Shown here piece by piece: positions 13,452-61,521 of a stretch of DNA of 64,000 bases (position 1 is its first letter; each line of letters starts with the position of its first letter). Position numbers and translations under genes: made by a program. Below the pieces are notes generated by a model. It worked only from the letters and a program-made list of their open reading frames with translations. It did not search any database and was not told the origin of the DNA. This DNA is from Candidatus Doudnabacteria bacterium RIFCSPHIGHO2_02_FULL_43_13b. GTDB taxonomy: Bacteria > Patescibacteriota > Doudnabacteria > UBA920 > O2-02-FULL-48-8. The DNA is taken from NCBI GenBank assembly GCA_001777655.1, contig MFER01000013.1, positions 68,322 through 132,321 on the forward strand, written 5' to 3'.

Positions 13452-15914
13452 ATGGATATCGGTAAAGTCAATCCAAGATCAATTGAACGTGAGATGGAGG
13501 AGTCATATTTGGATTACGCGATGAGTGTGATCGTGGCTCGGGCCCTGCCGGATGTTCGAGATGGGTTAAAACCCGTCCACCGCCGAATTCTTTATGCCAT
13601 GTCAGAGCTCGGGCTTCGCTCCAACGTAAAATTTCGCAAATCAGCGGCTGTGGTCGGGGAAGTTTTAGCCAAATACCATCCCCATGGGGACGTCGCAGTT
13701 TATGATTCCATGGTCCGCATGGCCCAAGAATTCGCCATGCGTTATCCCTTAATTGACGGGCAAGGAAACTTCGGTTCCATGGACGGCGATGCCCCGGCGG
13801 CCATGCGTTATACGGAAGCGCGCATGATGGCTTTGGCCGAAGAAATTTTGGCCGACTTGGAAAAAGACACGGTGGATTGGATGGATAATTATGATGCCAC
13901 AAAAAAAGAACCGAAAGTGCTGCCGGCCAAAGCTCCCAACCTGCTGCTCAACGGCACTTTAGGCATCGCAGTCGGGATGGCCACTGATATCCCGCCTCAC
14001 AATTTAGGGGAAGTGGTGGATTCCGTGATTAAATTAATTGAAGAACCACAAACTACGACTGATGAACTAATGGAGTTTGTGAAGGGCCCGGATTTTCCAA
14101 CTGGCGGATTTATCTATGATTGGAATACAATCAAACAAGTTTACGCCACCGGCAAAGGCCCCATCGTCATGCGCGGCCGGACCGAGATTGTGGAAGAAAA
14201 AGGCGTCCATAAAATTCTGATTACGGAAATTCCCTATCGAGTCAATAAGGCAACTCTCTTAGAGCAGTTTGCCGAGCTGGTGAAAGATAAAAGAATCGAA
14301 GGGATTAAAGATCTAAGGGATGAGTCGGACAAAGACGGGGTGCGAATCGTGATTGATCTGAAAAAAGAAGGCTTACCGAACAAAATTTTAAATCAATTAT
14401 TTAAATACTCATCTTTGCAAGAAACCTTCCACGTCAACATGCTGGCCTTGGTAGATGGAATAGAACCGCAGGTTTTGAACTTAAAAAATATTTTAGAATA
14501 TTACATTAAACATCGGGCCGAGGTTATCAAGCGGCGCACTGCTTTTGATTTGAACAAAGCGAAAGACCGCGCTCACATTTTAGAAGGATTAAAAAAAGCC
14601 CTGGATCATATCGATGCAGTGATCCAAACAATTAAGAAATCTGATACCACGGAAGAGGCTCATGCAGCCCTGATAACAAAATTCAAATTGTCAGATAAGC
14701 AGTCAACCGCGATTCTGCAAATGCAGCTTCGCGCACTGGCGGGATTGGAGCGTAAAAAAATCGACGATGAATTGAAGGAAAAACGGAAATTGATTGAAGA
14801 ATTGGAAGATTTACTCAAAAGTGAAAAAAAGATTAAAACCGTGGTCAAAACCGAACTGTTGGAATTGAAAGATAAATATAACAATCCTCGCAAAACCACG
14901 TTAGTGAAACAACCGATTGGAGAATTTAAAGCAGAAGATTTAATCCCCGAGCAATCAACCATGGTAATCGTTACCAGGTCAGGATACGTCAAACGTCTGC
15001 CCCCAGATACTTATAAAACCCAGGGCCGCGGCGGCAAGGGGGTAATCGGCATGACTACCAAAGAAGAAGACGTGGTAGAATGGCTGTCGACGACCAATAC
15101 TCACGATGATATTTTATTCTTTACGAACAAAGGGCGGGTTTTCCAAACCAAAGTCTACGAATTACCAGAAGCTTCCCGCACCGCCCGCGGTCAGGCCTTG
15201 GTCAACTTCTTGGAACTGCCGACTGATGAAATGGTTTCGGCCATCTTAACTTTTTCCAAGAAAATCCCGGCCAAATTTCTGATCCTTTCGACCAAAAAAG
15301 GCTTGATTAAAAAAACCGTAATCGAGGAGTTCGCGAAAGTCAGGCGATCGGGTCTGATTGCTATAAAGCTCAAAACCGGTGACGAACTGCGCTACGTCAA
15401 ATATTCTACGGGCAACGACGATGTGATTTTGTCCACGGCAGGCGGGCAAGCGATTCGGTTTGATGAAAAAGACGTCAGATCCATGGGCCGCGCCACTGCC
15501 GGAGTGAAAGGTATGCGATTGAAATCCGCCAGAGGCGGATCCTCCTCCGGAGGAAAAGATGATTACCTGATGAGTATGGATTTGGTATCCAAGAAAAACA
15601 AACTGGAAAATTTGCAACTTTTGATCGTCACGGAAAATGGCTTAGGCAAAAAAACAGATTTGAAATTCTACAAACGGCAACATCGCGGAGGATCGGGTAT
15701 AAAAACTTTGAAAGTTAGCCCGAAAACAGGCAAGATTGTCTCCCTCCACGTAATTGATAAAACCGAGGAACACGATCTGATGGTTATTTCCAAACTCGGA
15801 CAAACTCTTAGGACCCCCATCGGCAAAATTTCAACGCTGGGCCGCGCCACCCAAGGCGTACGAATCATGACCTTGGATAATAAAGACAAAGTGGCTACAA
15901 CCACAATAATTTAG
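13452..15914 (+). CDS. gyrA: DNA gyrase subunit A
   Basis: [16 protein letters not shown], the active-site Tyr region, and GyrA-box beta-pinwheel repeats. Confidence 0.95.
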
Positions 15915-15999
15915 AATTTACAATTTTGATTGAATTTTCGAAATTTGAATATTTAATATTCATTCGAAATTCATAACTCAAAATTAAAAATTCACTTTC

Positions 16000-16662
16000 A
16001 TGCTCTACGTAGTGGCTACCCCCATCGGCAATTTACAAGACATAACCTTTCGCGCCCTGGAAGTCCTCAAGACTTCCGATTTCGTAATTGCGGAAAATCC
16101 CAAAAACAGCGGCTTGCTTTTGAAACATTTTCAAATTGACAAGCCCTTCAAACAATTTGCCGAACATAATGAGCAAAAAGCTCTCCCACCCTTAATCCTA
16201 CAACTTAAATCCCAAAACGGCGCCCTCATTACCGATGCCGGGACGCCAGGCATCTCAGACCCCGGTTTCAGGCTCGTCCGGGCCTGTGTGGAAGCGGGGA
16301 TTAAAGTTGTTCCGATTCCAGGAGCAAATGCGGCCATCAGTGCATTATCAGTTTCGGGGTTGCCTACGGATCGCTTTCTTTTTATTGGTTTTGCTCCTCG
16401 CACAGAAAACAAACTAATCAAAACAGTCTTACTGGGTAAAGACACGGAAAGCACAGTCATTTTCTACGAATCACCCTTTCGGATTGTCAAATCTTTAGAA
16501 TTTATCCAAAAACATTTCCCAGACTGTCATGTGGTCGTGGCCCGCGAAATCACGAAAGTCTACGAAGAATTCCTGCGAGGGGCGCCCTCGGAGATTCTGC
16601 CCAAGCTCACAAAAGAAAATACAAAAGGGGAATTTACAGTCCTTATATCTTTCAAAAAATAG
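16000..16662 (+). CDS. rsmI: 16S rRNA (cytidine1402-2'-O)-methyltransferase RsmI
   Basis: MLYVVATPIGNLQDITFRALEVLK tetrapyrrole-methylase fold. Confidence 0.85.
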   Translation: MLYVVATPIGNLQDITFRALEVLKTSDFVIAENPKNSGLLLKHFQIDKPFKQFAEHNEQKALPPLILQLKSQNGALITDAGTPGISDPGFRLVRACVEAGIKVVPIPGANAAISALSVSGLPTDRFLFIGFAPRTENKLIKTVLLGKDTESTVIFYESPFRIVKSLEFIQKHFPDCHVVVAREITKVYEEFLRGAPSEILPKLTKENTKGEFTVLISFKK

Positions 16663-16702
16663 ATGTACTCTAATCTGACCGATCGGTCAATGGTGAGTAC
16701 AT
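16663..16702. repeat. Nested palindrome ATGTACTC..GACCGATCGGTC..GAGTACAT
   Basis: 8-bp outer inverted repeat around a perfect 12-bp palindrome; the TGACCGATCGGTCA core recurs at 59207..59222. Confidence 0.6.
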
Positions 16703-16849
16703 GGCTATTTAATCATTCCCCACGAAAACGGATCTATTTTATCAAAAAGGAAAGACCAAGCCGAATTGCTCTTCCAAAATTTTCAAAGCTTGAAAACTTA
16801 GGAAGGGGCACAAACTGAATTGCTCTATTTGTGCTCTTGGGTCGTATCG

Positions 16850-16937
16850 CTTTGGGGCGACAATCAAACGGCAAAAAAGCCATCACTGACCAAGGAAAAC
16901 ACCAAAGGTGAGTTTACGGTTCTAGTCTCGTTTAAAT
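16850..16937 (+). pseudogene. Degenerate duplicated fragments: yebC 5'-like (GGGCGACAATCAAACG) then rsmI 3'-like (translates TKENTKGEFTVLVSFK)
   Basis: Near-copies of the real rsmI C-terminus (TKENTKGEFTVLISFKK) and the yebC N-terminal codons, placed between rsmI and the TA cassette. Confidence 0.5.
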
Positions 16938-17007
16938 AATTTGACAAGTTAATTTAGTGGGAGCATAATAAACACATAAGGCGGCCAAGGGCCGTTTTTA
17001 TATTTTT

Positions 17008-17334
17008 ATGAAAATAATTATTAGCAAAGAAATGGGAAAATTTATCTATTCTCTTGAGAAGCAAACAATTGCCAAAGTTTTACGCACTCTAGATTTATTA
17101 GAAGAATTTGGTTACAAACTGCCAATGCCTCACAGCAAAAAGGTTTCGCGGAACATATTCGAACTCAGAACACGAGGACAACAGGAAATTCGAATATTCT
17201 ATTGCTTTTATCAAAGTAGAATTTATTTAATCTCGGGATTTGTTAAGAAGTCGCAAAGAATACCTCGTAAAGAATTAGAAAATGCAGAAAATAAATATAA
17301 AACTTTGGTTATTAATACTCTTGACAAGATATAA
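17008..17334 (+). CDS. Type II toxin, RelE/HigB (Gp49-like) family
   Basis: IFELRTRGQQEIRIFYCF..IYLISGFVKKSQ matches the Gp49/HigB addiction-module killer pattern; followed by an HTH antitoxin. Confidence 0.7.
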   Translation: MKIIISKEMGKFIYSLEKQTIAKVLRTLDLLEEFGYKLPMPHSKKVSRNIFELRTRGQQEIRIFYCFYQSRIYLISGFVKKSQRIPRKELENAENKYKTLVINTLDKI

Positions 17335-17355
17335 CTTATAAGTTATATTATATTC

Positions 17356-17628
17356 ATGCAAAGCTACAAATATTTCAAGGCTCAACTACTTAAGGATAAA
17401 ACTATCAAAAAGGCCTATAAAGAACTGGGACCGGAATTTGTTTTGGTGAAAATGTTGATTGAAAAGAGATTAAAACAAGGCTTGACTCAAACAGAACTAG
17501 CCCGAAAGATCGGTTCACAACAACCGGTAATTTCAAGACTGGAACGAGGAACTTATAATCCAACGATAAAATTCCTACATCGAATCGCTGACGCTCTAGA
17601 CGCCGAACTGAAAGTTTCAATTTCTTAA
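17356..17628 (+). CDS. HTH XRE-family antitoxin (HigA-like)
   Basis: GLTQTELARKIGSQQPVISRLERG helix-turn-helix. Confidence 0.7.
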   Translation: MQSYKYFKAQLLKDKTIKKAYKELGPEFVLVKMLIEKRLKQGLTQTELARKIGSQQPVISRLERGTYNPTIKFLHRIADALDAELKVSIS

Positions 17629-17719
17629 ATTTAAATCGAAAAACCAAGCCGACGTGCCCCGCACCGACACTTTTTGAACTCGCTTGGCAATAGGCCACTT
17701 CTTATGACAAAATAAAACC

Positions 17720-18436
17720 ATGAGTGGGCATAGTAAGTGGGCGACAATCAAACGAGCCAAAGGTGCGGCTGATGCCAAGCGCGGTCAGTTGTTTACGAAA
17801 TTGGCCAAAAATATTTCGGTGGCTGTCCAAAGCGGCGGGGGATCCGATCCGTCTTTCAATTTCAAACTCCGCATGGCAATTGACAAGGCCAAAGAATCGT
17901 CCATGCCGAATGAAAATATTGAGCGGGCAATCAAGCGTGGCGCGGGTGAGGGCAAAGAAGCCATTGTTTCTGTCACTTATGAAGGTTTTGGGCCGGCCGG
18001 ATCAGCATTGATTGTGGAAGCTATCACTGACAATTCCAATCGAACCCTCCAAGCCATCCGGACCGTTTTTCAAAAACATAACGGGCGGTTGGGTGAGCAG
18101 GGCAGTGTAGCTTGGATGTTTGAATCAAAAGGCGAGGTTCTAGTTGAACGGCAGCGTGGCGCTATGGATCTATCGTTAGAATTGATTGACCAAGGAGTCG
18201 AGGATGTGAAAGAAACCGAACATGGTTTAGAAATCTACACTCTGCCCGTGGATTTGGAAAAAACAAAAAAATTTATCGAAGGAAAAGGATTAAAAGTTCT
18301 ATCGGCAGAGCTGATTATGCGTCCGCAACAAACCGTGCAGCTGTCCGAAAACGATGCGGCTAAAGTTCAGGCTTTAGTGGACACTTTAAATGATAATGAT
18401 GATGTGGTAAATGTGCATAGTAATGTGAACTTATAA
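17720..18436 (+). CDS. yebC: YebC/PmpR family transcriptional regulator
   Basis: MSGHSKWATIKRAKGAADAKRGQLFTKLAKNI is the conserved YebC N-terminus. Confidence 0.9.
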   Translation: MSGHSKWATIKRAKGAADAKRGQLFTKLAKNISVAVQSGGGSDPSFNFKLRMAIDKAKESSMPNENIERAIKRGAGEGKEAIVSVTYEGFGPAGSALIVEAITDNSNRTLQAIRTVFQKHNGRLGEQGSVAWMFESKGEVLVERQRGAMDLSLELIDQGVEDVKETEHGLEIYTLPVDLEKTKKFIEGKGLKVLSAELIMRPQQTVQLSENDAAKVQALVDTLNDNDDVVNVHSNVNL

Positions 18437-18444
18437 AATAATCT

Positions 18445-18546
18445 TGTCTTTGCGAGCGAAGCGAAGCAATCTCTTTACTTAGGTCGGGATTGCTTCGTCG
18501 CTGTCGCTCCTCGCAAAGACAGAAGGAAAAAGACAGAAGGAAAAAG
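18445..18546. repeat. Palindromic repeat family 1 copy (12-bp perfect outer inverted repeat TGTCTTTGCGAG/CTCGCAAAGACA) followed by a 14-bp tandem GACAGAAGGAAAAA x2
   Basis: Shares the GCGAGCGAAGCGAAGCA and TTGCTTCGTCG arms with the copy at 351..428. The tandem ends at the ruvC ATG. Confidence 0.7.
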
Positions 18547-19020
18547 ATGAGAATACTAGGAATCGACCCCGGAATCGGCCGCACTGGCTATGCAATTTTG
18601 GAACAAACCAAGCAGAAAATTACTCTGCTGGCTTGCGGTTGTATCACGACCAAAACCGGCGAGGCCGAGCCTGCGCGATTGCTCGAGATCAAAACTGACT
18701 TAATGGCGATTATCAAAAAATATAAACCAGAAGCGATTTGCATTGAGTCATTATTTTTCGCGGCCAACGCGAAAACCGCGATGATGGTTGGGCAAGCTAG
18801 AGGAGTGGTGGTCGTCACCGCAGCGGAGAGCAAACTAAAAATTATTGAGGTCACCCCACTGCAAGTCAAAATTGCTGCCACAGGTTATGGCAAAGCGGAT
18901 AAACGGCAAGTGCAAACCATGATTGTCAAACTTTTGAAGTTAAAAAAAATCCCCAAACCCGATGATGTAGTGGATGCCATCGCTATCGCATGGGCGGGGA
19001 TTGGACGGACTAAGTACTAA
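18547..19020 (+). CDS. ruvC: Crossover junction endodeoxyribonuclease RuvC
   Basis: MRILGIDPGIGRTGYAIL RuvC N-terminus; start moved to the internal Met after the repeat. Confidence 0.9.
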   Translation: MRILGIDPGIGRTGYAILEQTKQKITLLACGCITTKTGEAEPARLLEIKTDLMAIIKKYKPEAICIESLFFAANAKTAMMVGQARGVVVVTAAESKLKIIEVTPLQVKIAATGYGKADKRQVQTMIVKLLKLKKIPKPDDVVDAIAIAWAGIGRTKY

Positions 19021-19029
19021 AATAAAAGA

Positions 19030-19067
19030 AAAGACCCTGTCCATCTACGAGAGTTGGACCGGGTCTT
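19030..19067. terminator. Bidirectional terminator hairpin AAGACCCTGTCC..GGACCGGGTCTT
   Basis: Long imperfect stem flanked by A-rich and T-rich runs, between ruvC and the GC-rich minus-strand gene. Confidence 0.5.
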
Positions 19068-19130
19068 CGTTGTGCACGACCGGCTGTCGCCGGGAATTTC
19101 CGTCTTTCTGGTCGTTGCCGTCTACGACGG

Positions 19131-19397
19131 CTACGAGGCGTCGCGCGTCGCTTCCGCGTCCGGTTGCGGCGGTGCGTCGCCTTCCGGGGGCGTGTTGCTG
19201 GCCGCCGCATGAGCCGCCGGCATCCGTGTATCAACAGCACGCTCTTCGCTGAAATGGAATCTCTCCGAGGGCGGGCGGGCGGGCGGAGCTGCGGTGGTGG
19301 CGGGCCGGGTCGAGCGGTTCCGGCTCCGAGCTGTCCTCGTGGAACGGCGGTTGCGCTTGCTCACTGGCTTGGCTAAACGTTTGGTCGCCTTTGACAT
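19131..19397 (-). CDS. Small, highly basic, low-complexity protein (88 aa) in a GC-rich (about 65 %) cassette
   Basis: MSKATKRLAKPVSKRNRRSTRTARSRNRS.. with an AGGAGGT RBS 5 nt upstream, a terminator downstream and a perfect palindromic operator upstream; GC far above the flanks. Confidence 0.5.
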   Translation of the reverse strand: MSKATKRLAKPVSKRNRRSTRTARSRNRSTRPATTAAPPARPPSERFHFSEERAVDTRMPAAHAAASNTPPEGDAPPQPDAEATRDAS

Positions 19398-19415
19398 GCT
19401 ACCTCCTGCTGATAA

Positions 19416-19438
19416 TTCACCTGGGATACCCAGGTGAA
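19416..19438. promoter_or_regulatory. Perfect palindrome TTCACCTGGG-ATA-CCCAGGTGAA (candidate operator or 5' UTR hairpin) upstream of the GC-rich small gene
   Basis: 10-bp perfect inverted repeat with a 3-nt spacer, 8 nt upstream of the RBS. Confidence 0.5.
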
Positions 19439-19481
19439 CCATTGAGCTAAGGTATCAGAAACCACAGTTTTAGTCAACACT

Positions 19482-41253: not shown

Positions 41254-41431
41254 TAGGAGTGAGACGATTATTAATTTTTCTATAATTATCTTTTACTATC
41301 ATTTTTTGACCGGTCGGACAAAATTTGAGAGTAATCATTTCATCCATTTTTCAATCTCCTGATCTGACTTCACCCAAGCTTGGTCGGACAAGCAGGCGTT
41401 TTTTTGATATGATAATTGTATCGATACTTCT

Positions 41432-58724: not shown

Positions 58725-59165
58725 ATGAATAAATACATCCAAGGAATTATCTTATTAATCTTGGTCGTTGCGGCAATCTTTTTGATTCCTAAGAAACAAG
58801 AACAGGCGCCACCAACCCAGGTTACTGACCAACAACCTCAAGCTATTCCAGAAGTGATTGTTGATACCCCGCAACCCAACGATGTGATCATAAGCCCAGT
58901 GACTGTGACTGGCCGCGCTCGTGGGTTTTGGTATTTCGAAGCCAATTTACCAGTGACGCTGAAAGATGGCAATGGCAATGTTTTGGCGCAAAAAGGTTTT
59001 CAGGCTATTGGAGATTGGATGACCACGGATCATGTGGATTTTTCTGACACTTTAATATTTATTACTCCGGCCACGCAATACGGCACTTTGATTATCAGTA
59101 AAGATAACCCGTCGGGCGAGCCGATCAACGACGCTGATTTCGTAGTCCCTATAAGATTTTGGTAA
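58725..59165 (+). CDS. Gmad2/GerMN-like immunoglobulin-fold secreted protein
   Basis: Signal-anchor, proline-rich linker, then VTVTGRARGFWYFEANLPVTLKDGNGNVL. Confidence 0.5.
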   Translation: MNKYIQGIILLILVVAAIFLIPKKQEQAPPTQVTDQQPQAIPEVIVDTPQPNDVIISPVTVTGRARGFWYFEANLPVTLKDGNGNVLAQKGFQAIGDWMTTDHVDFSDTLIFITPATQYGTLIISKDNPSGEPINDADFVVPIRFW

Positions 59166-59295
59166 AAATCCGCTCGGACACTGCTAAAAAATCTGAGATG
59201 TATGCACATTTGACCGATCGGTCAGCTAAGAGTACAAAAAGAAAAGCGGTTTAGTAGGTTAGATCCTGAAACGAGTTCAGGATGACGAATATTTT

Positions 59296-61521
59296 TTAGT
59301 TTAATTTTATCGGCCATTTTTCGACCAGCAGTAGGTTCTTGTGATTGATTTGCCAGGCGGCTTCGGTAACGAACGGCACGAATGGATGCAGGAGTTTGAG
59401 GCAAGTTTCCAAGACAGTTTTTAACATTAGTTGGGTGGAAGCCTTGGTTTTTGGATTGGCTAGCTGAGCTTTGGATTCTTCGATAATTTTATCAGCGAAG
59501 GTATGCCAAAAGTAATGATAGAGATTTTCTGCCGCATGGGCGAGGTCTTGTTTGTCCAAAAGTTTAGTTGTGCCATTAGTTACTTTGTCTAAATTTTTCA
59601 GGATGACTTTGTGAGCAGGGGCTAATTGAGCTGTTGCGTCCATGCCCTCTGTGTTTTGCATGACAAACCGAGCCGCGTTCCAAATCTTGTTGGCAAAGTT
59701 TCGGTAGCCGCGGACTTTATCTTCTGATAGCGGCAAATCATTGCCTGGCAAGTTGCCGACAACCAAAGCCATCCGCAGAGCGTCGTTGCCATAAATATCG
59801 ATCACGCCCAAAGGATCAATGACATTGCCCTTGGACTTGCTCATTTTTTGGCGATCTTTATCGCGCACCAGGCCATGAAGGTAGACGTTTTCAAACGGCA
59901 CCTGCCCGGTTTTGTAAAGCCCGAACATAATCATCCGCGCCACCCAGAAGAAGAGAATATCCCAACCAGTTTCCATCATTTGGGTCGGGTAAAAAGTCTG
60001 GAAGTTTATACCCCCCCTAGCCCCCCCTATGTTAGGGGGGGAATCTCTCTGTTCTCCTCCTTTCAAGGGGGAGTTAGAGGGGGTATTATCTAATGCCATG
60101 AGTGTGGCATATGGCCACTGACCGGAAGAAAACCAGGTGTCGAAAGTGTCAGGATCCTGGACCCAACCTTCCCCTGGCGATGCTTCTGAAATTTTCAGCT
60201 CATTGTCTTTATACCACACCGGGATCGGAATGCCCCACCAGATTTGGCGAGAAATCGGCCAGTCACGGATGTTTTTCATCCAATGCATTAGCACTTTTTC
60301 AAATTTTATTGGATTTATTTTAACTTTTTTATTTTTTACAGCATTTACGACCAAATCACGCAGTGAAATTTCGAATTTTGAATTTCGAATTTTGAATTTT
60401 TTTGTCATTGCCACATACCACTGGGGGATGATCAGGGGTTCCAGGACATTCTTACACTTGTAGCATAGTGACACGTTGTGCTTGTAAGTTTCATCGATTT
60501 TTTCCAGCAGTCCCAGCTTCTGCAGATCTTCGACAACTACCTTGCGTGCTTCGGCGACCTTCAGTCCGTGATATTTCGTGTTGGGCAAGTCCATCTTACC
60601 TCGCTTATCAATAACCTGTTTGGGCCCTGGGATTTCATCTTTTCCGCCGGGGACGGATCCGCCTTTGGCGGAATGTTTCTGCCAGATTTCGAAATCTGCG
60701 GCATCATGCGCCGGTGTTACCTTGACTACCCCGGTGCCGAAATCTTTATCTACTAGTTCATCCGCAATCACTTTGATTTTAAATTTGCCCAAAAGTCCTT
60801 CAGCCTCCAGTTCTTGGCCAATGTATTTTTTATATCTGGTATCTTTCGGATTGACTGCCAAGGCCGTGTCGCCAAATTTGGTTTCCGGCCGCACTGTCGC
60901 CAAAGTCAGCGGGCCGTATTTGATGTAATAAAGCGGATCGGTTCGCTCTTCGTGCTCGGTTTCGAGGTCAGCTAGGCCGGTTTGGTGTTTGACACACCAG
61001 TTGCAGATGCGGTTGCCGCGGTAAATCAGACCGTCGCGGTACATTTGCTCAAATGTTTCGTAAACGATTTGGATAATCCGCGGATCCAGGGTAAACATAT
61101 TGCGCGACCAGTCAGTCGAAGCGCCGAGGCGGCGAATGCCGTCTTCGGTTTGCTGTTTATAGTCCTGCACGAAATCCCAGACTTCTTTATAAAATTCCTC
61201 CCGCGTCATCTGAAAGCGTGACCGGCCTTCTTTTTCCAGTTTTTTCTCAAACACGACTTGGGTTTCGAACCCGGCATGATCCGTGCCGGGTAGCCAAAGG
61301 GTTTTTCGGCCGCGCATGCGTTCGAAGCGGATCATGATATCTTGCAGAGTAAAGCCTAATGCGTGGCCGACATGGACTTGGCCGTTGGCATTAGAAGGCG
61401 GCATGATGATCGTATATGGCTTGCCCGACAGATTATCGGGATTAAAAAAACCTGACTCTTCCCAGAGTTTGTAAATCTTGGACTCTTTGGATTGGTCATA
61501 GGTTGTGGGGATGTCGCGCAT
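59296..61521 (-). CDS. valS: Valine--tRNA ligase (short form) carrying two in-frame repeat insertions
   Basis: HVGHALG (HIGH) and KMSKSKGN motifs, editing domain. Insertions lie at 60009..60090 (G/C-homopolymer palindrome) and 60361..60400 (tandem). Confidence 0.85.
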   Translation of the reverse strand: MRDIPTTYDQSKESKIYKLWEESGFFNPDNLSGKPYTIIMPPSNANGQVHVGHALGFTLQDIMIRFERMRGRKTLWLPGTDHAGFETQVVFEKKLEKEGRSRFQMTREEFYKEVWDFVQDYKQQTEDGIRRLGASTDWSRNMFTLDPRIIQIVYETFEQMYRDGLIYRGNRICNWCVKHQTGLADLETEHEERTDPLYYIKYGPLTLATVRPETKFGDTALAVNPKDTRYKKYIGQELEAEGLLGKFKIKVIADELVDKDFGTGVVKVTPAHDAADFEIWQKHSAKGGSVPGGKDEIPGPKQVIDKRGKMDLPNTKYHGLKVAEARKVVVEDLQKLGLLEKIDETYKHNVSLCYKCKNVLEPLIIPQWYVAMTKKFKIRNSKFEISLRDLVVNAVKNKKVKINPIKFEKVLMHWMKNIRDWPISRQIWWGIPIPVWYKDNELKISEASPGEGWVQDPDTFDTWFSSGQWPYATLMALDNTPSNSPLKGGEQRDSPPNIGGARGGINFQTFYPTQMMETGWDILFFWVARMIMFGLYKTGQVPFENVYLHGLVRDKDRQKMSKSKGNVIDPLGVIDIYGNDALRMALVVGNLPGNDLPLSEDKVRGYRNFANKIWNAARFVMQNTEGMDATAQLAPAHKVILKNLDKVTNGTTKLLDKQDLAHAAENLYHYFWHTFADKIIEESKAQLANPKTKASTQLMLKTVLETCLKLLHPFVPFVTEAAWQINHKNLLLVEKWPIKLN
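60009..60090. repeat. G/C-homopolymer palindrome CCCCCCCTAGCCCCCCCTATGTTAGGGGGGGAA..GGGGGAGTTAGAGGGGG in frame within valS
   Basis: Encodes the low-complexity segment ..NSPLKGGEQRDSPPNIGGARGGINF.. inside ValS. Confidence 0.6.
60361..60400. repeat. Tandem repeat ATTTCGAATTTTGA x2 in frame within valS (encodes KFKIRNSKFEIS)
   Basis: A related tandem AAATTCAAAATCC sits in tsaD at 63026..63060, both next to CGCGAAC/GTTCGCG-type hairpins. Confidence 0.55.

Follow-up and report, generated by a model that had tools for sequence, protein, structure and literature searches.

The described systems closest to the locus reported here are type II toxin–antitoxin (TA) pairs of the HigBA kind, represented by the solved HigBA of Streptococcus pneumoniae (PDB 6af3 and 6af4) and by higBA of Rts1. 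A second promoter is situated ahead of higA in Rts1. Our locus occupies positions 16663–17719 of a 64-kb stretch of DNA, termed the window in the following, and lies between the genes rsmI and yebC of an uncultivated population of Candidatus Doudnabacteria (Patescibacteria; candidate phyla radiation, CPR) sampled from the Rifle aquifer. It resembles HigBA in the toxin-first gene order, in a toxin of the RelE superfamily (Gp49) and in an XRE antitoxin, and a separate promoter for the antitoxin is likewise predicted here from the sequence. The HigBA-like pair is a known kind of system and ordinary accessory cargo; it is accompanied by an unusually legible recombination scar.

Two further groups of loci are of relevance. 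Homology-facilitated illegitimate recombination was put forward for effector–immunity arrays of type VI secretion systems (T6SS), where orphaned 3' gene ends are left, and the same mechanism was considered as a hypothesis for Rhs loci, in which orphaned 3' ends stand in strings (PMC5361080). The displacement arrays of the T6SS clusters in Vibrio cholerae, with their orphan immunity genes and 3' effector ends, and those of Rhs C-terminal displacement are similar to our locus in that gene ends of diverged alleles are found beside the module. A further likeness would be an incoming module of which one end is anchored through homology within a conserved neighbour gene, while the other end is joined illegitimately. 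The second group comprises chromosomal TA modules that are strain-variable cargo. As in these, the pair is present or absent between conserved neighbours, no transposase is linked to it, and its homologues are found in unrelated contexts, one of them next to a phage portal gene.

Our explanation has three layers, namely the identity of the TA pair, the use of the site as a hot spot and the origin of the scar. These layers differ in support, the origin of the scar being the inferred one.

An accessory HigBA-type pair between rsmI and yebC

The NCBI record of the stretch is GCA_001777825.1 (contig MFFB01000006.1), and NCBI assigns RsmI and YebC by name to Doudnabacteria. The gene order in the window is gyrA (13452–15914), rsmI (16000–16662), toxin (17008–17334), antitoxin (17356–17628), yebC (17720–18436) and ruvC. 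The TA segment has the following features:

17008–17334, plus strand: HigB/Gp49-like toxin gene, 108 aa, intact (PF05973; PDB 6af3_A)
17356–17628, plus strand: XRE/HigA-like antitoxin gene, 90 aa (HTH_3; PDB 6af3_B)
17321–17349, plus strand: internal promoter TTGACA-17-TATATT around the perfect 18-nt palindrome TATAACTTATAAGTTATA (17330–17347), kept in position and sequence in four homologous cassettes
16941–16969, plus strand: sigma-70-like promoter TTGACA-17-CATAAT, an 11/12 consensus match only, directly 3' of the stop codon of an rsmI fragment (see below)
16978–17005, plus strand: terminator-like GC-rich hairpin with a T run (fold −11.5 kcal/mol, z = −3.0)

Both genes are on the plus strand, the toxin gene precedes the antitoxin gene, and they are 21 nt apart. 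The toxin matched the Pfam family Gp49 (PF05973) with E = 7e-22 and 77.7 bits (cutoff 23.9), and the antitoxin matched HTH_3 with E = 4e-15 and 55.9 bits (cutoff 23). Among solved structures the toxin matched a single one, the S. pneumoniae HigB chain 6af3_A (E = 8.5e-5); the antitoxin matched the HigA chain (6af3_B, E = 8.6e-5) alongside other XRE-type repressors. None of the NCBIfam models matched the toxin. With both Pfam matches and both 6af3 chains in hand, the assignment made in an earlier note on this DNA, a HigB/Gp49-like toxin with an XRE antitoxin, is supported.

In the protein database the toxin has 321 homologues at E <= 1e-5, mostly from Patescibacteria, the closest being 71% identical. 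The three closest homologues examined (68–71% identity) are each followed by an XRE gene of about 90 aa, and a scan of IMG/VR with the toxin found no relative. The homologous pairs at the loci L050, L051–53 and L054–56 have Fic/PIF1 helicase genes, a phage portal gene and a DEAD-box helicase gene as neighbours, which are unrelated contexts. When four cassettes were aligned, nucleotide homology spanned only the segment from the ATG of the toxin (17008) to the stop codon of the antitoxin (17628). At all 29 positions where 13 homologues are invariant, the toxin has the invariant residue. A 100-aa version of the toxin starting at 17032 was rejected, because the start codons of the homologues line up with 17008.

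Judged by these similarities, the locus is an intact type II TA operon of the HigBA type with the toxin gene first. The toxin is a Gp49/HigB-like protein with the RelE fold and presumably acts as a ribosome-dependent mRNase; the antitoxin has an XRE/Cro-type helix-turn-helix domain for DNA binding. The pair is intact and apparently functional. What is known of the family leads us to predict toxicity, neutralisation and repression.

In the four cassettes the last part of the toxin gene contains a conserved block of TTGACA, the palindrome TATAACnTATAAGTTATA and the −10 box, and the 18-nt palindrome is situated between the −35 and −10 boxes. This segment (17321–17349) is probably the antitoxin's own promoter and operator, with the palindrome as the likely site of a predicted autorepression. 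The upstream promoter at 16941–16969 does not contain an equivalent palindrome.

Over the region 15900–18500 (about 2.6 kb), at least eight contigs that differ in sample, pipeline and assembler (NCBI, JGI, ENA, Logan) are 100% identical, among them contigs of 35–156 kb, and additional contigs were identical to the window over the portions they cover. Screening the population contigs L001–L017 for an empty-site or variant allele yielded none, all being identical, and in the short population contigs that deviate the differences are only scaffold Ns or noise at the contig ends. Because of the 100% identity across independent assemblies, the rsmI–yebC structure is real and essentially fixed in the population. 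Certain short contigs do break or hold Ns near 16853–16910, as might be expected if the reads of two co-occurring strains had been merged into a mosaic. Such an assembly chimera is hardly credible, since the full 2.6 kb is identical in the independent contigs and the short-contig differences are noise at contig ends.

The order rsmI–yebC–ruvC is kept in 30 or more Doudnabacteria loci, 20 of them from the genome collection and the others looked up individually or taken from metagenomes, mostly with a gap of 1–60 nt between rsmI and yebC. In the closest relatives this gap measures 1 nt (L047), about 3 nt (L081), 22 nt (L049) and 37–58 nt (L018 and L057). Thus, the two genes adjoin each other without the TA pair in these genomes, which agrees with the earlier view of the pair as inserted between them. 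Other loci carry unrelated cargo in the gap. It is a PaaX-like gene in L019; a gene of about 105–124 aa for a 23S-rRNA intervening sequence (IVS) four-helix bundle (PF05635) in L021, L024, L029 and L034, the L034 copy being split by a frameshift; a different TA pair in L031 (5797–6303), in which a 76-aa gene precedes a 90-aa RelE/HigB/YafQ-like toxin; and two hypothetical genes plus a TrmB regulator in L048. The same block of a 196-aa gene (minus strand), a TrmB gene (plus strand) and yebC is carried by L084. In L058 (605–1298; JGI Ga0070686_100248539) a segment of about 600 nt with a 181-aa minus-strand gene lacking a Pfam match follows the rsmI terminator arm. This segment is bounded by 7-bp direct repeats ACCAGGC (621 and 1217), of which the window has the single-copy, empty configuration. 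Because the relatives have either tiny gaps or unrelated cargo, the TA pair is accessory at this site, and the gap is a hot spot for the gain and loss of small genes in Doudnabacteria. Duplicated junction fragments were searched for at the other occupied junctions (L019, L021, L024, L029, L031, L034 and L048) and found at none of them.

In L084 (gyrA, 196-aa gene, trmB, yebC) and in the contig P0246, where yebC follows gyrA directly, rsmI is not located between gyrA and yebC; therefore, the position of rsmI varies within Doudnabacteria. These two lineages have the YebC closest to that of the window. In L047 (4662–5377) yebC was called as two open reading frames (ORFs) of 154 and 88 aa, which could reflect a frameshift, a pseudogene or an assembly error.

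Gene fragments of diverged rsmI and yebC alleles

Fragments of diverged alleles of both flanking genes, an rsmI tail and a yebC head, adjoin the TA segment. With slightly better than even confidence we attribute this scar, beside the HigBA cargo, to recombination with a diverged syntenic lineage, of the homology-facilitated illegitimate type, followed by a deletion. The fragments and the corresponding resident genes are:

16853–16890, plus strand: yebC fragment, codons 7–19 of a non-resident allele, encoding WATIKRQKAITD, with one surplus G and one surplus A, each in a homopolymer run
16886–16939, plus strand: rsmI fragment, codons 202–219 and stop codon of a non-resident allele (alignment, shuffles, profile of relatives)
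16000–16662, plus strand: resident rsmI (16S rRNA C1402 2'-O-methyltransferase), 220 aa, intact (Pfam TP_methylase, E = 3e-27; NCBIfam TIGR00096, 233 bits, above cutoff)
17720–18436, plus strand: resident yebC, 238 aa, intact, with the N-terminal haplotype 'AKGAAD' (Pfam and NCBIfam matches; haplotype comparison)

The rsmI fragment aligns without gaps to the resident positions 16606–16659 with 39 of 54 nt identical; the local alignment gives 40/55, and none of 2000 shuffles was as good. A profile built only from the rsmI 3' ends of relatives finds 16886–16939 with E = 2e-8 in the whole window. Between fragment and resident gene there are 15 differences, 13 of them at third codon positions (p = 3e-5 for at least 13 of 15). 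Twelve codons are changed synonymously, one change replaces Ile by Val, and there are no indels. About 75% of the third positions differ, compared with 2 of the 36 first and second positions, and among 100,000 random sets of 15 substitutions not a single one left at most one amino-acid change. It follows from the third-position pattern and the near absence of amino-acid changes that both copies evolved as functional genes; since they were functional during nearly all of their divergence, they would stem from separate lineages and the fragment would not be a local duplicate. On the codon pattern, then, the fragment and the resident rsmI must have diverged as working genes in separate lineages. 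The fragment is nearer to the rsmI tail of L047 (43/51 nt) than to the resident tail (37/51), and its stop codon lies one codon earlier than the resident's, at the same codon as in L047.

The yebC fragment shares the 16-mer GGGCGACAATCAAACG exactly with the resident gene (16855–16870 and 17739–17754; 0 of 2000 shuffles). When two single-base runs, one of G and one of A, are corrected, 16853–16890 reads WATIKRQKAITD, the resident equivalent being WATIKRAKGAAD. Of 36 nt, 31 are identical to L048 and L020, whereas 25 are identical to the resident, nearly all of them within the 16-mer. The YebC N-termini in Doudnabacteria fall into two haplotypes, 'AKGAADAKRGQLF' and '[AQ]KA[IV]TDAKKGKAF', both of which are widespread. 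The resident YebC has the first ('AKGAAD') and the fragment the second ('QKAITD'). The 16-mer is also identical in L084, so its exactness is explained by conservation.

A separate origin of nt 34–69 of the resident yebC was considered and dropped, because the 'KGAAD' haplotype is common in many lineages. This part of the gene (17753–17788) is 86% identical to the distant L035, whose RsmI is 56% identical, and 58–67% identical to the close clade. The encoded haplotype 'AKGAADAKRG' is widespread, and two old allele classes may be kept apart by recombination.

The two fragments are joined head-to-tail and overlap by the 5 nt CTGAC (16886–16890), a sequence that is common to the inferred yebC parent (ATCACTGAC) and the inferred rsmI parent (CTGACCAAG). 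Upstream of 16853 nothing resembling yebC codons 1–6 was found; therefore, 16852/16853 is taken as a second breakpoint.

The earlier note had described this region as degenerate copies of the yebC 5' codons and the rsmI 3' end fused to each other. The fragments are real, with a similarity above chance to the ends of both genes (0 of 2000 shuffles each), and the yebC part proved longer than assumed (16853–16890); the two are, however, not copies of the resident genes. Likewise, the proposal of a mobile or recombined TA module whose insertion duplicated the junction holds in that the module is accessory and recombined. It fails with regard to the duplication, as the fragments are diverged, non-resident alleles.

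Two other origins of the scar were considered at this point. First, the fragments could have arisen in situ, either by the insertion of the TA pair or by a local tandem duplication comprising the 3' end of rsmI, the 5' end of yebC and what lies between them, so that the resident junction was copied and the copies then decayed neutrally. A yebC head followed by an rsmI tail is indeed the order of a tandem duplication junction, the 16-mer is exact in both copies, and the spacing of the repeats is collinear (888 nt versus 884 nt). Neutral decay, however, cannot give third positions so strongly changed next to nearly unchanged first and second positions, with no indels and an intact stop codon, and the haplotype that the yebC fragment shows beyond the 16-mer is not the resident's but that of other lineages. 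Plain duplication with neutral decay is ruled out by the codon-position pattern, and we regard an origin in situ as improbable overall. A variant, in which the duplication was followed by allelic replacement of both resident genes by recombination, is possible; it needs more events and still implies recombination between lineages.

Second, the segment from the rsmI tail over the TA pair to the yebC head of a relative could have looped out and closed at CTGAC, and the circle could have entered by a Campbell-type crossover in the yebC 5' region with a subsequent deletion. The permuted yebC/rsmI junction resembles a circle junction, the exact 16-mer offers a possible crossover site, and the foreign origin of the fragments would be accounted for. 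Yet yebC codons 1–6 are missing upstream of the left 16-mer, so that an extra deletion ending exactly there would be needed. There is no recombinase and no sign of circles, plain conservation suffices for a 16-mer that L084 shares, and the steps are at least as many as those of a staggered join. A circular intermediate is thus as doubtful in our view as an origin in situ, and recombination with a diverged syntenic lineage is preferred to both.

Relics of older cargo and the proposed history

The remaining parts of the gap contain a palindrome, terminator relics and the remains of older cargo:

16663–16702, no strand assigned: 40-nt nested palindromic element directly after the rsmI stop codon (16660–16662); fold −19.5 kcal/mol, z = −5.1
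16713–16749, plus strand: decayed relic of the rsmI intrinsic terminator (CCCCGCGAAAGCGGGG and a T run), homologous to L048 4598–4634
16743–16769, plus strand: repeat copy 1, the 5' arm of a clade-wide terminator hairpin and 'empty' site of the cargo gene found in L058; 17/19 versus L058 609–627, just after the L058 rsmI stop codon
16764–16823, no strand assigned: hairpin (16767–16810) and sequence homologous to the end of a cargo gene (195 aa, minus strand) of relatives, namely its last codons and terminator; fold −14.2 kcal/mol, z = −3.2
17638–17657, plus strand: repeat copy 2, a second relic of the terminator-arm motif, 14/15 versus copy 1, with no hairpin left (fold z = −0.3)
17667–17716, plus strand: what is left of a TrmB-family regulator gene, its last 16 or so codons including an in-frame stop codon (homology to L048 and L084)

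Downstream of rsmI, 16717–16749 matches the rsmI terminator of L048 at 27/32 positions, collinear after the rsmI stop codon, with 28 of 1000 shuffles as good anywhere in the L048 gap. The hairpin segment 16764–16807 matches the hairpin at L048 5228–5272 (34/44; 0 of 1000 shuffles), and the hairpin region matches L058 1217–1267 (43/51; 0 of 1000 shuffles). On the other side of the TA pair, 17673–17714 matches the end of the TrmB gene preceding yebC in L048 (6771–6812) at 35 of 42 nt (0 of 1000 shuffles). The translation LFELAWQ*ATSYDKI compares with LFELAWQTATPYDKI, and L084 also matches. The trmB relic holds the best promoter-like site ahead of yebC, TTGGCA-18-CAAAAT (17684–17713), which is probably the reason for its survival. 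By these alignments, the flanks (16717–16749, 16764–16807 and 17673–17714) are identified as relics of the cargo seen in L048, L058 and L084.

The imperfect direct repeats reported in the earlier note are present, though displaced by 5–7 nt. The copies at 16752–16769 and 17640–17657 match at 15 of 18 positions (14/15 in the core), and the motif occurs only twice in the window. Their significance is modest: the score was reached by 1 of 2000 shuffles, yet by 17 of 2000 random pieces of the window, some of which overlap the locus itself. They are situated about 250 nt and about 10 nt from the TA genes and hence do not flank the pair directly, and they are terminator-arm relics. After the rsmI of L058 the terminator with the repeat arm reads AAAGACCAGGCTGA-AAG-TCAGCTTGGTCTTT, and the same arm follows gyrA in L084.

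The repeat motif raises the question of a site-specific exchange, in which ACCARGC(C)GA would be the attachment core for small gene cassettes including the TA pair. The gene segment of about 600 nt in L058 with ACCAGGC on both sides, the 'empty' single copy in the window and a second copy of the motif 10 nt past the antitoxin stop codon would fit such a mechanism. Against this, in both L058 and L084 the motif belongs to the arm of a terminator hairpin, and it is not found at the cargo borders of the more distant cargo-bearing loci examined. The single one-sided ACCRRGC matches in L048, L064 and L075 fit the background of 0.29 per kb per strand. Moreover, there is no integrase nearby, and a deletion between the 7-bp repeats explains the difference between L058 and the window equally well. 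ACCRRGC as a general attachment core was rejected, since it is absent from cargo borders except in the window and L058. That the rsmI–yebC gap is a dedicated cassette-exchange site at the ACCARGC terminator arm, served by an as yet unidentified recombination system and with the scar as a by-product, therefore has very little probability in our estimate. If true, CPR bacteria would have a platform that resembles an integron but has no integrase to be recognised as such, and TA pairs, four-helix-bundle genes and regulators would be swapped between lineages as its cargo.

Neither an ORF for a transposase or integrase in or near 16663–17719 nor terminal inverted repeats bracketing the TA cassette were found. 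A transposon or insertion sequence cassette with a target-site duplication was rejected because of the missing transposase, because the 14/15 repeats are terminator relics and because the gene fragments are diverged alleles. An integron cassette was rejected as well: there is no integrase among the genes called around the locus, the segment 17630–17700 is unstructured (z = −0.3), and a Rfam scan of 15900–18600 at E <= 1 matched no RNA family.

The present order of the locus is resident rsmI, palindrome, terminator relics, hairpin, yebC codons 7–19, and rsmI codons 202–219 with their stop codon. After this stop codon follow 68 nt, higBA, the terminator-arm relic, the trmB relic and the resident yebC. 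For the recombination that we prefer, the following history can be proposed. The ancestor would have been arranged as in L048, L084 and L058, with rsmI, a terminator, an optional gene, the hairpin, the minus-strand gene of 195 aa, a gene like trmB and yebC. In a first step, two diverged syntenic versions of the locus would have recombined, one end being joined by homology and the other illegitimately and out of register, with codon 19 of yebC of one parent joined to codon 202 of rsmI of the other at CTGAC. In the product, the yebC head of one allele would have been fused to the other allele's rsmI tail, and the TA pair would have followed this tail. In a second step, a deletion would have taken the 195-aa gene, most of trmB and codons 1–6 of the yebC fragment, sparing the last 16 codons of trmB. 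The donor expected from such a staggered join would have an intact rsmI ending in ...CTGACCAAGGAAAACACCAAAGGTGAGTTTACGGTTCTAGTCTCGTTTAAATAA, followed by TTTGACAAGTTAATT. A single out-of-register event would thus account for both the permuted yebC–rsmI order and the non-resident alleles of both fragments. The TA pair may have arrived with the foreign DNA, or it may have been in the genome before.

Several observations weigh against this reading. The path is reconstructed, not observed, and protein searches with RsmI, toxin and YebC as well as genome and metagenome scans found no donor or intermediate, that is, no TA pair above 71% identity and no rsmI tail above 43/51. The left breakpoint (16852/16853) requires a second event, and the CTGAC microhomology is deduced from the sequences of relatives. 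Taken alone, the yebC fragment is matched by a profile of relatives (nhmmer, 16855–16892) only with E = 0.39; what speaks for it is the exact 16-mer together with 16 of 19 matches to L048 and L020 downstream. YebC is only weakly incongruent in phylogeny (Fisher p = 0.04, the cut being chosen post hoc), and L048 shows the same incongruence. In the comparison of gyrA, rsmI, yebC and ruvC, YebC was somewhat aberrant in its first 65 or so residues, with the same pattern in L048 and weak statistics. The proposed history does not account for the segments 16824–16852 and, apart from the repeat, 17629–17669. Finally, the terminator-like hairpin at 16978–17005 separates the best upstream promoter match from the toxin ATG.

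The nested palindrome just after the rsmI stop codon was present as described in the earlier note, with outer 8-bp arms ATGTACTC and GAGTACAT and the core GACCGATCGGTC. A second copy, which had escaped notice, was found at 59198–59237 on the minus strand (33/40 identical). The core was searched for in the loci of the relatives and is absent from all of them. The 40-nt element may be a genome-specific intergenic palindrome with the role of a terminator or of a site for protein binding. The second copy is flanked by the convergent valS (59296–61521, minus strand) and a 146-aa gene (58725–59165, plus strand), and there is a weaker look-alike at 41306–41321.

Some observations concern the neighbouring genes. 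Directly 3' of ruvC, the stretch at about 19010–19440 is GC-rich (about 50% versus about 43%) and holds a 103-aa ORF rich in Arg, Ala and Pro (19131–19442, minus strand) without a Pfam match. Downstream of ruvC the gene calls in the strain contigs L011 and L015 differ. The gyrA gene of L019 (1397–4996) and L059 has an interruption of about 1.05 kb between residues ~101 and 132, which could be an intein or another insertion.

Comparison with known systems

In comparison with the solved HigBA (6af3), the pair in the window is only distantly similar (E about 1e-4), its host is a CPR bacterium, and its activity is predicted. The putative operator palindrome TATAACnTATAAGTTATA sets it apart further, being specific to the Patescibacteria subfamily to which the pair belongs.

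In contrast to the T6SS and Rhs arrays, where the orphaned pieces come from toxin genes, those in the window come from housekeeping genes, the rsmI tail and the yebC head. As read from the sequence, the join would have been made out of register between syntenic loci, giving the permuted order yebC-then-rsmI. Such a scar, with its footprints of recombination between CPR lineages that differ by about 30% in nucleotide sequence, would be of use beyond this locus. In uncultivated episymbionts gene flow is difficult to follow, and scars of this type could be searched for systematically to gauge how often illegitimate recombination imports TA or defence cargo. The locus also reveals a hot spot of accessory genes in a genome that is very small and syntenic elsewhere.

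The third comparison is with chromosomal TA modules carried as strain-variable cargo. Insertions of that kind rarely keep readable relics of the prior cargo together with foreign alleles of both neighbours. The value of the present locus is accordingly a forensic one, a stretch of 1 kb having kept the prior cargo relics, the foreign alleles of both housekeeping neighbours and the junction microhomology side by side.

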